A DNA stretch of 64,000 nucleotides from Alphaproteobacteria bacterium. GTDB lineage: Bacteria > Pseudomonadota > Alphaproteobacteria > GCA-2731375. The position numbers and the translations under genes are program-made. Numbering within the stretch: position 1 is the first letter of the stretch; every line of letters begins with the position of its first letter. Below, in pieces: positions 6,230 to 11,104 of this stretch. The notes below the pieces were generated by a model that worked only from the letters and a program-made list of their open reading frames with translations, was not told where the DNA came from and ran no database searches. The stretch is from the NCBI GenBank assembly GCA_030752605.1, contig JASMDX010000064.1, positions 1 to 64,000 on the forward strand, read 5' to 3'.

Positions 6230-6670
6230 TCAAGGCCCCGGGTCCTCCCAACGCCTGAGACGTTTCGCGGCTGCGCGGGCAAAGCGCAGGGTAACCTCGC
6301 GCCGCCGGCTGGCATGCAGCGCCTTGGAGTTGCCAGGCGCCGGACGGGCGATATCGCCAGAATAGGCATCAGCCAGAATTATTCCCGGTTCGTCAGGTAA
6401 TATCTCTACTGGAAAGTCCAGGGGTACCGCGAAATAGAACAGATCGCAATAGTCGAGATATTCCGGCCATTTCTGATCCGATCTAAAATCCACCACGCTG
6501 CACTTGATCTCGACAATAGCGATGCGGCCCTTGCGGTCGATTCCGGCCAGATCGGCCCGGCGGCCGGAGCGCAGGGTAAATTCGGTCAGACTGTCATAAC
6601 CCAGATGGGTCAACAGCCGGCCCACGCCACGGGCCAATTTCTGTGCCGTGTCATTGCGGGGCGCCGCCAT
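6230..6670 (-). CDS. mmcB: MmcB-family DNA repair protein (PD-(D/E)XK nuclease fold)
   Basis: The core ADLAGIDRKGRIAIVEIKCSVVDFRSD is typical of MmcB-like putative endonucleases from alphaproteobacteria. Confidence 0.55.
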   Translation of the reverse strand: MAAPRNDTAQKLARGVGRLLTHLGYDSLTEFTLRSGRRADLAGIDRKGRIAIVEIKCSVVDFRSDQKWPEYLDYCDLFYFAVPLDFPVEILPDEPGIILADAYSGDIARPAPGNSKALHASRRREVTLRFARAAAKRLRRWEDPGP

Positions 6671-7059: not shown

Positions 7060-8106
7060 TCAATCAAGCAATTGCAACAGATCGTATTCGGTTTCCGCCG
7101 CCCTACGGCCGATGCCGGCATATTCAACGGTGCGCTGCTCCCCATCAAGATGGGTAAAGCAGAGGATCATGCACAGGATGCCCCAGCGCAGGGTGCCAAA
7201 GACCTGCCAGAAGTAGATTTCCTCCGCATCAAGACGGCCACCGCCAGCTGCTTCATAACCGTCAATCATATCGGCAACATCGCCAAAACCGCCGACGATG
7301 TTGTCGTGATAGCCATAGCGCCAGGAGCGCACGCACATCCAGCCAAGGTCGCTGCCGGGATTGCCCAGATGGGCGGATTCCCAATCCAGCACGCCGATCA
7401 GGCCGTCCCGATCGACCAGAATATTGCCATTGCGGAAATCCCCATGGCAGAGCGCATAACGCTCGCCCGCCAATTCCAAACGTTCCTGCAACCAGCGAAA
7501 GCCGTATTCAAAACCGGCATGGGGTTGGTGAAAGGAATCCATGATGGCACGGTAATGCAGCAATTCCTCGGCCGCCGGCAAACCCCGCATGGCAGGCAGA
7601 TTCTCCATAGGAATCGTGTGGAAGCGCCCAGCCGCATGGCCAATTTGATAGGCCAGCTTTGGCCGGGCGCGGGCATAGGCATCGTCCCGTACGATCCGCC
7701 GGCCCAGGGCCTCACCCACCAGACGATGGCTAAAGAAGCCTTCAGTGGTACGTTCGGCTTTGTGTAAAAAGAACGGCACCTTGGGCATGGGCACACCGAC
7801 CTCGCCGGCTAGCTGCAGCAACCGTCCCTCGACCAAGCGCCCCACGTTCAAGCGGCCTTCGGGCACGCCTTCGAACTTCTTTTCTACCTGGCGGTCCATG
7901 GGATCGCGCTTCAAGATCAAGGGCTGGCGCGCGCCATCAGGCTTCAGGGCATCAAACGACCAGGTCTCGCGGCTGGCCCCGCCGGACAGACGGGCCAGAC
8001 CCTCGACCTCGGTGCCCGTACCATATTCCTCGGCCAACCTCTCGCACAAAACCGCCGCCAACTGTTCGCCAGCGCTAAGTTTTGGGTCTTGCACCGCCTC
8101 GGCCAT
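7060..8106 (-). CDS. phosphotransferase family protein (APH-like kinase fold), copy 1
   Basis: The motifs RLSGGASRETWSF, LILKRDP and the Brenner-type catalytic loop CHGDFRNGNILVD are present. The start at 8106 overlaps the upstream paralog stop as TGATG. Confidence 0.75.
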   Translation of the reverse strand: MAEAVQDPKLSAGEQLAAVLCERLAEEYGTGTEVEGLARLSGGASRETWSFDALKPDGARQPLILKRDPMDRQVEKKFEGVPEGRLNVGRLVEGRLLQLAGEVGVPMPKVPFFLHKAERTTEGFFSHRLVGEALGRRIVRDDAYARARPKLAYQIGHAAGRFHTIPMENLPAMRGLPAAEELLHYRAIMDSFHQPHAGFEYGFRWLQERLELAGERYALCHGDFRNGNILVDRDGLIGVLDWESAHLGNPGSDLGWMCVRSWRYGYHDNIVGGFGDVADMIDGYEAAGGGRLDAEEIYFWQVFGTLRWGILCMILCFTHLDGEQRTVEYAGIGRRAAETEYDLLQLLD

Positions 8107-9149
8107 CAATCCACCAATTGCAACATATCGTATTCGCCCTCGATAGAACGGCGGCCAATAGAGATTTTTTCGACCGAGCGTTCCCGCCCCTCGATATGGG
8201 TAAAGGCCAGCATCATACAAATCACGCCCCAGCGCATGCAGCCAAACACTTCCCAAAAATGTAGCGTCTCCAACGAGATCCGGCCGCCGCCGCCCGCTTC
8301 ATAGCCATCCAGCAAATCCTGCACCGGACCGAAACCGCCCACCGGGTTGTCGTAATAGCCATAACGCCAAGCCCGGATACAGATCCAGCCCAGATCAGAG
8401 ACAGGGTTGGCCAGATGGCCCAACTCCCAATCCAGCACCCCACGCAAACCGTCACCATCAACCAGCAGATTACCGTTGCGGTAATCGCCGTGGGAGAGGC
8501 CGATCTGATCGCCGGCCAGTTCCAGCCGCTCGCGCAGCCAATGGATGCCGTATTCAAAACCAGCGTGGGGCTGTTTCACCGAATCCATCACGGTGAGGTT
8601 ATAATCCAGAGCCTCTGCCGGAGTAAATCGGCGCAGCTCCGGCAGGCGCTCTATAGGAATATTGTGAAACCGCGCCGCCGCCTCACCGCATTGAAATGCC
8701 AGTTTGGGCCGGGCATTGGCAAATTCATCCTCGCGCACGATGCGCCGGCCCAGAGCCTCGCCTTCTAAACGCTGCATCACGAAGCCCGCCGTAGTGCACT
8801 CGTCGGCAGCCAAAAAAAACGGTACTTCCGGCACCGGCACGCCAACTTCGCCGGCCAACTGCATCAGGCGCCCCTCGGTCCAGCGGTCGACGCTAAATTT
8901 CGTGTCGGCCCCGCCCAGCTGGTTTTCCAGCTTCTCATCCAGGGGGTCACGTTTCAGGATCAACGGCTTGCGCCCGCCATTGAGCAACAAAGCGTCAAAC
9001 GACCAGGTCTCCCGGCTAGCCCCGCCTGAGAGGCGCACCAGGCCATCGATTGTGGTGCCGTGGCCATAGACCTCGATCACCCGCTCCTCCAGTACAGCGG
9101 CCAGGTTCTGGGTCTGAATTTCGCCCTTGTTTTTTGTTGTGTTAGCCAT
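8106..9149 (-). CDS. phosphotransferase family protein (APH-like kinase fold), copy 2
   Basis: This is a paralog of 7060..8106 with the same motifs, including SHGDYRNGNLLVD. The start is taken at ATG 9149 (MANTTKNK). Confidence 0.75.
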   Translation of the reverse strand: MANTTKNKGEIQTQNLAAVLEERVIEVYGHGTTIDGLVRLSGGASRETWSFDALLLNGGRKPLILKRDPLDEKLENQLGGADTKFSVDRWTEGRLMQLAGEVGVPVPEVPFFLAADECTTAGFVMQRLEGEALGRRIVREDEFANARPKLAFQCGEAAARFHNIPIERLPELRRFTPAEALDYNLTVMDSVKQPHAGFEYGIHWLRERLELAGDQIGLSHGDYRNGNLLVDGDGLRGVLDWELGHLANPVSDLGWICIRAWRYGYYDNPVGGFGPVQDLLDGYEAGGGGRISLETLHFWEVFGCMRWGVICMMLAFTHIEGRERSVEKISIGRRSIEGEYDMLQLVD

Positions 9150-9248
9150 CACCGTCTGGCATCCGTCCACCCGTAATACTATACAAGTCCATAGGATAGA
9201 GGGAGAGAGGGAAGCAAGGCAATTGGCAACAGCGATGATGAACGCCTT

Positions 9249-9548
9249 TTGCGCCTGTCACCGCAAGACAATGTGGCGGTGCTGGTCCAATCGGTCAGCC
9301 AGGGCGAGCGCCTGTTGCTGGGCGGACAAGAACTGGTGCTGCCCTCCGATTTGGCCCTGGGGCACAAGCTGGCTCTCAGGCCACTGGCGGTTGGCGATAC
9401 GGTAATCAAATACGGCACGCTCATCGGCTCCATCACCCAGGCCGTCGCCGCCGGCGGGCATGTGCATAACCACAATCTGAAAAGTGATTACATCGCCAAC
9501 CATTCCGAAGATGATCCTTACGAAGCCGACCTTGAAGTGGAGCCCTAG
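9249..9548 (+). CDS. UxaA/GarD-family (altronate/galactarate dehydratase) small SAF-domain subunit
   Basis: The 99-aa N-terminal SAF-like segment, with HKLALRPLAVGDTVIKYG, matches the split form of UxaA-family hydratases. Confidence 0.55.
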   Translation: MRLSPQDNVAVLVQSVSQGERLLLGGQELVLPSDLALGHKLALRPLAVGDTVIKYGTLIGSITQAVAAGGHVHNHNLKSDYIANHSEDDPYEADLEVEP

Positions 9549-9550
9549 AC

Positions 9551-9715
9551 ATGATCAACGGCTATCTGCGCGCCGACGGGCGGAAGGGCATCCGCAACAT
9601 GGTCCTGGCCGTGGCCCAAGGCACCGAAAGCAATTCGGAAGCCCTGGGCCATCAGGAGTTTTGTATGAAGTACAAACGTTTCGAAGCCATCGGCCCGGAA
9701 TGTTCGCCGATCTAG
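9551..9715 (+). pseudogene. UxaA-family large subunit, truncated after about 54 codons
   Basis: It starts MINGYLRADGRKGIRNMVLAVA, the canonical large-subunit start, then diverges and stops. The remainder is absent, and the 3' end is overlapped by the convergent peroxiredoxin gene. Confidence 0.45.
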
Positions 9716-10155
9716 CCTAAATCCGCCAATACCTGGTCGGGATGCTCCGCCGGGACGACGGTATCGTAGACCTTGACGATATAGCCGTCGGGACCAATCA
9801 GAAAACTAAAGCGGGCCGGAAACGGTTTTTCCGTCTGGATCACGCCATAGGCTTCGCCCGCGACTTTCTCGGGATCGCTCAACAGATCGTAGGGAAAGTT
9901 GAACTTCTCCTGAAAGGTGCGATTATCCTCCGGGCTATCGAACGAAGCGCCCAGGATCACGGCATTCTTGGCTGTAAAGTCTTGGATTCGATCACGGAAC
10001 CCTTTGCCTTCAACGGTTCAGCCAGGCGTGTCGGCCTTTGGATACCACCACAGGACCACATGGTGGCCCTTATACTGTTCCAGGGTGGTGGTTACACCCT
10101 GTTGGTTGCGCATGGAAAAGGCTGGTGCCAAATCCCCTACTTTCGGTAATGCCAT
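9712..10155 (-). CDS. bcp: Bcp/PrxQ-type peroxiredoxin with an in-frame TGA at the peroxidatic Cys codon (candidate selenoprotein)
   Basis: From ATG 10155 the frame is uninterrupted to the stop at 9712, except for one TGA at 10018-10020 (codon 46). The protein reads MALPKVGDLAPAFS...VVLWWYPKADTPG[TGA]TVEGKGFRDRIQDF...ILGASFDSPEDNRTF... It aligns along its length with E. coli Bcp, YPKAMTPGCTVQACGLRD, with the TGA exactly at Cys45. There is a strong RBS (GGGGAG). The six-frame track only reports the part downstream of the TGA. Confidence 0.65.
9984..10002 (-). other. candidate bacterial SECIS-like hairpin downstream of the in-frame UGA
   Basis: The mRNA segment GGGUUC-CGUGAUC-GAAUCC forms a 6-bp stem (one G-U pair) with a 7-nt loop containing GU. 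It begins 16 nt 3' of the UGA. This was folded by eye only. Confidence 0.3.
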
Positions 10156-10159
10156 TTTT

Positions 10160-10165
10160 CTCCCC
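10160..10165 (-). promoter_or_regulatory. Shine-Dalgarno GGGGAG for the peroxiredoxin gene
   Basis: The mRNA sequence is AAAAGGGGAGAAAAAUGGCA. The GGGGAG lies 5 nt upstream of the ATG at 10155. Confidence 0.5.
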
Positions 10166-10182: not shown

Positions 10183-10383
10183 CTAGCTATCGAATGAAAA
10201 CTTTATGCCGTCACTACACCCTGTTCGCCGCACGCCACTAGGTGAAGCGGATTGAGGTGCCTGGGATTGCGCCGGCTTGGCCGCCTCGGGGCGCTTCCCC
10301 GACAGTGCATCTAGGCGCTGCCGGTTCTTGTCCAGCAGCGCATCAAAGGCGGCAGACGAATTCCTATCCCCATCGTTACTCAT
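10183..10383 (-). CDS. hypothetical small protein (66 aa)
   Basis: The ATG at 10383 has a GGAG RBS and lies 12 nt downstream of the hydrolase gene stop. The product reads MSNDGDRNSSAAFDALLDKNRQRLDALSGKRPEAAKPAQSQ... There is no homology call. Confidence 0.25.
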   Translation of the reverse strand: MSNDGDRNSSAAFDALLDKNRQRLDALSGKRPEAAKPAQSQAPQSASPSGVRRTGCSDGIKFSFDS

Positions 10384-10393
10384 GCTCCATCCT

Positions 10394-11104
10394 CTACGCC
10401 TGGGCCTTACGGCCTTCATTCCACCAGGTCTCGAATTCCGTACGCGCCGCATCAGAAAAGCCCGACGTGGCCAAGCCGCGCAAATATTCCAACACCGCAT
10501 TGCCATCAATGACGTCGCCGTATTTGGCGTCGATATCGAACAGATTGGCCTCGTGCGGGCCTTGCGCCCGGTCGCCAACACCATCGCTGACTACGATGGT
10601 GTAGTAGGCATATTGCAAGGAATCAACCGCCGAGGCACGCACACAGCCTGACGTGGTACAGCCGGTGATAACCAATGTGTCGACGCCCTGACTGCGCAGA
10701 TAGCTATCCAGATCGGTGCCGAAAAAAGAAGAGGCATAGTTCTTCGATATGACCAATTCACCCGGCAATGGCTTGATCTGATCGTCCACCACGCAATTGG
10801 GCGAGCCCTTGCGCAGAATTCCCAGAGACGGCACTTTTTTGACGAAGACACCACCGTCGGACAGATCCTCCTTGTATTCCACCGTGGTGTAAACGATGGG
10901 CAGACCGGATTTTCGGAACGCCGTTTGCAACTGGGCCGTCACCGCCAATTGCGAGGAAAAATCACCACCCAGGGGCGAGCTGGGATCGGTAAAGCCGACA
11001 ATAAAATCTACCACCAGCAGGGCCGGCTTCCTGCCGAAGCCCGAGGACACGGCAAAGCCCTTGCTCTCATAGCTCGCCCGTGTGTCCTGTTCCCAATCCG
11101 CCAT
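10394..11104 (-). CDS. isochorismatase-family cysteine hydrolase (N-carbamoylsarcosine amidase-like)
   Basis: The motif LLVVDF and the catalytic-Cys motif LVITGCTTSGCVRASAVD are present. At 236 aa the size fits. Confidence 0.7.
   Translation of the reverse strand: MADWEQDTRASYESKGFAVSSGFGRKPALLVVDFIVGFTDPSSPLGGDFSSQLAVTAQLQTAFRKSGLPIVYTTVEYKEDLSDGGVFVKKVPSLGILRKGSPNCVVDDQIKPLPGELVISKNYASSFFGTDLDSYLRSQGVDTLVITGCTTSGCVRASAVDSLQYAYYTIVVSDGVGDRAQGPHEANLFDIDAKYGDVIDGNAVLEYLRGLATSGFSDAARTEFETWWNEGRKAQA

Follow-up and report, generated by a model that had tools for sequence, protein, structure and literature searches.

The minus-strand gene described here, located in a 64-kb stretch of DNA (the window), very probably encodes a functional Bcp/PrxQ-like peroxiredoxin (Prx) with selenocysteine (Sec) as the peroxidatic residue, as judged from comparison of homologous sequences. 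An earlier note, made from the letters of the window, had proposed it as a candidate selenocysteine peroxiredoxin. The comparative tests support this reading, because the in-frame TGA is conserved in 82/82 orthologs, purifying selection is equally strong on both sides of it, homologs with Cys at the corresponding position exist, and the codon is followed by a conserved stem-loop with suppressed synonymous variation; from these features we infer the insertion of Sec. The case also shows that a reader with the sequence alone can recognize a true selenoprotein gene correctly.

Reading frame, active site and subfamily

The peroxiredoxin frame, on the minus strand, opens with the ATG at 10155 and closes with a TAG at 9714-9712. 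Its translation comprises 45 codons, the TGA (10020-10018), and 101 further codons before the stop, with zero frameshifts (Table 1). The TGA at codon 46 is thus the sole interruption of a 147-codon AhpC/TSA open reading frame. Its context, P39-K-A-D-T43-P-G-[TGA]-T, corresponds to the peroxidatic motif PxxxTxxC. In a Pfam search done with Cys put at the TGA, residues 6-128 matched positions 1-123 of 124 of the AhpC-TSA profile (PF00578, E=1.3e-31), and P39, T43 and R115 are invariant in a 34-sequence alignment.

The best NCBIfam matches are the Bcp model NF006960 (residues 4-145 vs. profile positions 4-151 of 156; 106.7 bits, equivalog cut-off 140), followed by the PrxQ model NF053650 (96.1 bits, equivalog cut-off 260), both of them below the cut-offs, and no NCBIfam model reaches its own cut-off for this protein. 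The top PDB matches by sequence are the BCP structures 3DRN and 5IIZ/3GKK. The resolving Cys at position +5, which characterizes the atypical 2-Cys Bcp class, is not found: the residue at +5 from the TGA is Lys51, and the translated protein has zero Cys in its whole length. Cys is likewise entirely lacking from 34 of the 82 orthologs, and there is no conserved Cys column among the 82. Since neither the +5 Cys nor any other Cys is present, we group the window protein with the 1-Cys-type Bcp proteins.

The corresponding parts of the earlier note are all borne out by the translation and the profile comparison. It had described an intact 147-codon Bcp/PrxQ gene free of frameshifts and with one in-frame TGA, placed exactly at the catalytic Cys position, a good ribosome-binding site (GGGGAG, 4 nt before the ATG), the absence of the resolving Cys at +5, and likeness to Bcp along the whole length, which agrees with the almost end-to-end alignment to the NCBIfam Bcp model.

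Table 1. Features of the peroxiredoxin gene and its predicted SECIS element, in window coordinates.
Feature	Position	Strand	Basis and remarks
Bcp/PrxQ-like peroxiredoxin selenoprotein CDS (predicted), complete, 147 residues	9712..10155	minus	translation; Pfam; 82/82 intact orthologs
In-frame TGA, codon 46, peroxidatic position of PxxxTxxU; predicted Sec	10018..10020	minus	TGA in 80/80 GTDB species loci and 82/82 unique CDS
Shine-Dalgarno-like GGGGAG, 4 nt upstream of ATG	10159..10164	minus	direct reading of the sequence
Predicted bacterial SECIS inside the CDS	9975..10012	minus	conserved pairing; RNAalifold; suppressed synonymous variation; bSECIS criteria
Lower helix	10012-10008 with 9979-9975	minus	90.1% paired, 77 distinct sequences
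Upper helix GGGUUC / GAAUCC	10002-9997 with 9989-9984	minus	99.1% paired, 77 distinct sequences
Apical loop CGUGAUC	9996-9990	minus	7 nt; 21 nt from UGA

Conservation of the TGA codon and its Cys counterparts

With each GTDB species represented by a single genome, a scan for orthologs yielded 80 loci, and all of them carry TGA at the peroxidatic codon. They derive from marine Rhodospirillaceae, other Alphaproteobacteria, Gammaproteobacteria (including Thioalkalivibrio sp. HK1), SAR324, Gemmatimonadetes, Latescibacterota and Phycisphaerae, and so represent no fewer than six groups at the phylum or class level. The 82 distinct orthologous coding sequences, 145-162 codons long, each possess exactly one internal TGA, no frameshift and no second stop. 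Their protein identity ranges from 45 to 97% and their nucleotide sequences differ too; even the nearest species representatives, with 96-97% identity at the protein level, show about 82-85% identity at the DNA level. The earlier note had suggested examining whether TGC, TGT or TGA occupies this codon in relatives; the orthologous sequences have TGA throughout (82/82), and Cys homologs also exist.

The close matches among database proteins are of three kinds: 82-residue C-terminal proteins, which correspond to the part after an internal GTG and are 73-96% identical to the window Prx, "full-length" proteins with Trp at the TGA site, and Cys forms. Among the top 120 database matches the column of codon 46 is occupied by "W" in 68 and by Cys in 43 sequences, the remaining 9 being C-terminal fragments. 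For two of the Cys forms, P0002 and P0009, the identity is 61-62%.

TGA is the commonest stop of the long open reading frames in the window (18/38), and many of the 82 orthologs use TGA as their own real terminal stop, therefore the codon is not reassigned.

In two loci from gammaproteobacterial-type genomes we found two tandem Sec-peroxiredoxin genes (L053, TGA at 10130 and 10736; L060, TGA at 6279 and 6759). The second copy has a variant motif, WWYPKAGTYG-U-S, and a longer C-terminal tail, and retains the same GGGUUCCGUGAUCGAAUCC hairpin.

Purifying selection on both sides of the TGA

For the 13 closest sequences we calculated the median dN/dS by the Nei-Gojobori method. The value is 0.072 for codons 1-45 and the same for the two stretches after the TGA, codons 47-147 and 62-147. 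The equality on either side of the TGA argues that the segment after it is translated in the same frame and is strongly constrained, and a translated, constrained segment in turn excludes a pseudogene. Codons 47-65, located between the TGA and the internal GTG, are among the best conserved at the amino acid level (TxEGxGFRDRIQDF).

A SECIS-like hairpin within the coding sequence

The TGA is followed, after 5 nt, by a two-helix element whose upper helix begins 15 nt after the TGA. The hairpin GGGUUC/CGUGAUC/GAAUCC, which the earlier note had placed at about 16 nt, is thus present, and the pairing frequencies of both helices in the orthologs (Table 1) speak for a conserved stem-loop 3' of the TGA, the lack of which had been named there as an observation that would count against Sec. 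RNAalifold on its own predicts the same two helices, and sliding the partners by one column reduces the pairing from 95% to 50-59%. The changes are compatible with pairing: in the upper helix G-U is replaced by A-U or G-C, and the base of the lower helix has U-A, C-G and G-C. The covariation is modest, and the signal comes largely from conservation: most pairs are simply conserved, and changes on both sides are seen in one pair only. Taken by itself, the hairpin of the window folds no better than shuffled sequences (z=0.41). Because the fold of the lone sequence is at the chance level, a single sequence cannot decide between a selenoprotein and a pseudogene, and the significance of the hairpin derives only from the comparison of orthologs.

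The synonymous sites are frozen at codons 49-57: Phe53 is encoded by TTC in 82/82 sequences, Arg54 by CGT in 82/82, and Ile57 by ATC in 76/76, while Arg56 is only CGA or AGA and Gly52 only GGG or GGA. Arg can be encoded by six codons. Invariant residues away from the TGA (P39, T43, P44, G45, G69 and S71) use nearly all of their synonymous codons. As a control, metagenome contigs were scanned for Cys forms with the pattern DTPGCTxEGxGFRD(R/S), with synonymous sites left free, which yielded 20 distinct matches. In these, Arg54 is encoded by CGC in 15 cases, by CGT in three, and by CGA and CGG in one each; Phe is encoded by both TTC and TTT, and position 56 is Arg in 16 and Ser in four, with eight codons in use (six for Arg, two for Ser). 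The suppression of synonymous variation at the hairpin is therefore absent from the Cys forms. Two individual Cys forms illustrate different states of the element. In the close homolog P0009 (L124, 3001-3447) the hairpin has been lost through both synonymous and non-synonymous changes. P0002 (L123, 120-572), which has TGC and is known from a single 590-nt contig, still contains the complete sequence of the SECIS-like hairpin, which suggests a recent Sec-to-Cys replacement.

Bacterial SECIS elements are expected to have an apical loop of 3-9 nt, an upper stem of 4-16 bp and a distance of 16-37 nt from the UGA to the loop, with a G at loop position 1 or 2 and G or U next to it, and a minimum free energy (MFE) of at most -7.5 kcal/mol (consensus given in a 2026 review, PMC13188914). 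The element of the window agrees with this description in all respects: the loop has 7 nt, the upper stem 6 bp and the spacing is 21 nt, the loop CGUGAUC has G and then U at positions 2-3, and the MFE of -7.6 kcal/mol barely reaches the threshold. An Rfam scan of the whole 64-kb window at the gathering thresholds gave no match; evidently none of the Rfam models covers this bacterial SECIS.

Searches for the Sec machinery and for other selenoproteins

Neither the 64-kb window nor the ca. 1.3 Mb of flanks from related genomes yielded a selA, selB, selD or tRNA-Sec gene. ARAGORN detected no tRNA-Sec in the window and 60 related loci (the window contains no tRNA genes at all), and a Pfam scan of the 20 largest open reading frames of the window revealed no SelA, SelB or SelD domains. 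A tblastn search for SelD in the window and all related loci gave no match, a weak negative, as the E. coli sequence used as the query was unvalidated. A selC gene nested within selB has been described for Alphaproteobacteria. As context, selABC clusters have been reported in some Rhodospirillales (PMC8124441), which is no test of the genome studied here.

A home-made Sec/Cys screen of 1.34 Mb (the window and 82 loci) retrieved only the Prx family, including the two tandem paralogs; its other matches were rejected as alternate-frame or Arg/Pro-rich low-complexity artefacts. A scan of the window for other coding regions interrupted by TGA, based on a codon-usage score, returned only in-frame neighbors and opposite-strand shadows; the scan is insensitive and missed the Prx gene itself.

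Annotation of the gene in public databases

We surveyed the annotation of the database proteins P0001-P0120 and of the loci L001-L017, L121 and L122. In public records (NCBI, ENA and Logan) the gene is called as two open reading frames of 45 and 82 amino acids, and in the corresponding DNA every 82-residue call follows a 45-residue AhpC-TSA open reading frame that ends at the TGA. Because none of the NCBIfam models reaches its cut-off, the gene remains split in two in the NCBI annotation. Other entries, from ENA, JGI, Logan and in part NCBI, give the protein in full length but with Trp in the place of Sec. For two such proteins checked in the DNA the codon is TGA and neither database sequence is reproduced under translation table 11, hence the "W" must stem from a code in which TGA is Trp; the Trp entries presumably come from short contigs that were called with this genetic code. 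As a result of the split and Trp calls and the missing NCBIfam match at cut-off, selenium use of abundant marine Alphaproteobacteria and Gammaproteobacteria is under-reported. The practical value of the present case lies in this recurring annotation error, and in the Cys-free Sec-Bcp clade.

Genomic neighborhood

The earlier note had characterized the locus as rich in decayed genes. This is correct for the adjacent uxaA-like gene, which is a deletion remnant, and does not extend to the 20 largest open reading frames of the window, which look intact and encode ordinary metabolic and housekeeping proteins, including MutS, PurK, dihydroorotate dehydrogenase, hydantoinases and acyl-CoA ligases. 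The decayed uxaA-like altronate/galactarate dehydratase region (9249-9715, plus strand) is convergent with Prx and consists of a SAF-domain open reading frame (9249-9548) followed by a 54-codon remnant (9551-9715), whose stop (9713-9715) overlaps the Prx stop (9712-9714). Compared with the related locus L008, the window is devoid of ca. 1 kb of the large-subunit gene and of ca. 140 nt of intergenic spacer; the missing 1 kb is present also in L018 (JABIWH01) and L019 (CAZPWJ01). In the more distant relative L001 both dehydratase genes are entirely absent.

Further downstream of Prx, the window contains two tandem paralogous genes of APH-type phosphotransferases (7060-9170, minus strand), and in relatives this pair is followed by DUF6285 and MmcB-like genes. 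The APH block is syntenic with Prx only in the closest Rhodospirillaceae clade (10/80 loci). On the other side, a 66-codon open reading frame (10183-10383, minus strand) lies between Prx and an isochorismatase-family gene (10394-11104); its counterpart in L008 is a 68-amino-acid gene call with no Pfam match, and it is detectable by tblastn only in the three nearest loci. No conserved operon partner was found among the 80 loci: the isochorismatase-family neighbor occurs in only 17/80 loci, and the other neighbors only in the closest clade.

Alternative readings of the TGA codon

The earlier note had weighed its own proposal against a recent nonsense pseudogene, in which a TGC-to-TGA change inactivated a Cys-type bcp gene within a decaying locus. 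The two codons differ by one base, and the adjacent uxaA-like gene is indeed a deletion remnant; such an accident, however, would not leave the same TGA in 82/82 orthologs from distant lineages, none of them with a frameshift or second stop, nor a downstream segment under purifying selection as strong as that upstream (dN/dS 0.07). The orthologs are not assembly copies of one sequence, given their 45-97% protein identity and differing DNA. The conserved TGA, the dN/dS and the intact orthologs refute this alternative, to which we assign a practically negligible probability. It is also extremely improbable that the locus gives rise to two separate products, a 45-residue N-terminal peptide and an 82-residue protein initiated at the internal GTG (window position 9960). 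These are precisely the two open reading frames called in NCBI, ENA and Logan, but standard gene callers split any selenoprotein in this way, and neither fragment would have a complete thioredoxin fold or the catalytic residue. Codons 47-65 precede the GTG and are nevertheless among the best conserved, and the two-frame annotation is excluded on this ground.

The third alternative, selenium-independent read-through of UGA, in which reassignment or near-cognate suppression inserts Trp, Cys or Gly, with the hairpin acting as a read-through stimulator, appears very unlikely, if slightly less so than the other two. It would account for the W at codon 46 of database proteins and for the lack of Sec machinery in the window and in the ca. 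1.3 Mb of related flanks. Against it, the W of the two proteins checked goes back to TGA in the DNA and a TGA=Trp gene-caller code, and true stops in the window are most often TGA, which also terminates many Prx orthologs. Moreover, a peroxiredoxin with Trp or Gly as its peroxidatic residue would be inactive, and the hairpin fits the SelB-type SECIS model.

Proposed mechanism

According to the Sec reading, the UGA at codon 46 would be decoded by Sec-tRNA(Sec) delivered by SelB, which would be recruited by the in-frame stem-loop starting 5 nt downstream of the UGA. The predicted product is a peroxiredoxin of 147 residues and 16 kDa; its active site would read PKADTPG-U-T, with Arg115 as the catalytic Arg. 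By analogy with peroxiredoxin chemistry, the selenolate would attack the peroxide and become a selenenic acid, to be recycled, as in 1-Cys Bcp, by an external thiol reductant, e.g. thioredoxin, glutaredoxin or glutathione. An external reductant would be needed because Cys is lacking both at the resolving +5 position and elsewhere in the protein. No conserved neighboring gene suggests its identity, as the isochorismatase-family gene is adjacent in so few of the loci. As a speculation in which we place rather little confidence, the clade might constitute a Cys-free "1-Sec" Bcp with Sec as the sole redox-active residue, passed between marine phyla by horizontal transfer along with an almost invariant intragenic SECIS, and with a recycling chemistry and reductant unlike those of the characterized Bcp/PrxQ proteins.

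Relationship to known peroxiredoxins and selenoproteins

A prokaryotic selenoprotein family "Prx" (pfam00578, TxxU) was described in the Sargasso Sea and Global Ocean Sampling (GOS) selenoproteomes (Zhang and Gladyshev, PLoS Genet 2008, PMC2398784), and with 253 sequences it ranks as the sixth most abundant family in the latter (PMC2398784). Dataset S1 of the GOS study lists, under "Peroxiredoxin", reads with the motif WWYPKADTPGUTIEGNGFRDRIQDF (PMC2398784). One of them, JCVI_READ_1000727, is 56% identical to the window Prx over 146 residues. The listing of the same subfamily as a selenoprotein counts in favor of the Sec reading. It also means that the novelty of the gene was overrated in the earlier note, since the exact subfamily is already in the published GOS set. 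By sequence comparison, the window gene is an ortholog within a subfamily that has been catalogued in ocean metagenomes since 2008: real, and not new. The copy in the window is from a marine Rhodospirillaceae-like alphaproteobacterium, the closest MAGs being from Saanich Inlet. In biological terms it is an ordinary member of the known family, which ranks among the most abundant selenoprotein families of marine metagenomes.

A literature search for a characterized Sec-containing Bcp gave nothing relevant. A Sec-containing peroxiredoxin has been demonstrated experimentally in PrxU of Eubacterium acidaminophilum (Sohling et al. 2001, as cited in PMC13188914). Both PrxU (NF040737) and the window Prx are bacterial peroxiredoxins with Sec encoded by UGA at the peroxidatic position, which for the window Prx is a prediction. 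The two belong, however, to different subfamilies: the PrxU model has 233 positions, and the window Prx, with 43.8 bits against the equivalog cut-off of 270 bits, was rejected as a member. With the Cys-type Bcp/PrxQ proteins, such as E. coli Bcp (NF006960), BCP from Xanthomonas campestris (3GKK/5IIZ) and Bcp1 from Sulfolobus (3DRN), the window Prx shares the fold family, the length and the active-site Pro, Thr and Arg (P39, T43 and R115). It differs from them in the predicted Sec in place of the peroxidatic Cys, and in the absence of the +5 resolving Cys and of Cys elsewhere. From the Prx family of the GOS and Sargasso Sea data it differs in nothing essential, as they have in common the Pfam domain, the TxxU / PxxxTxxU motif and the marine origin.
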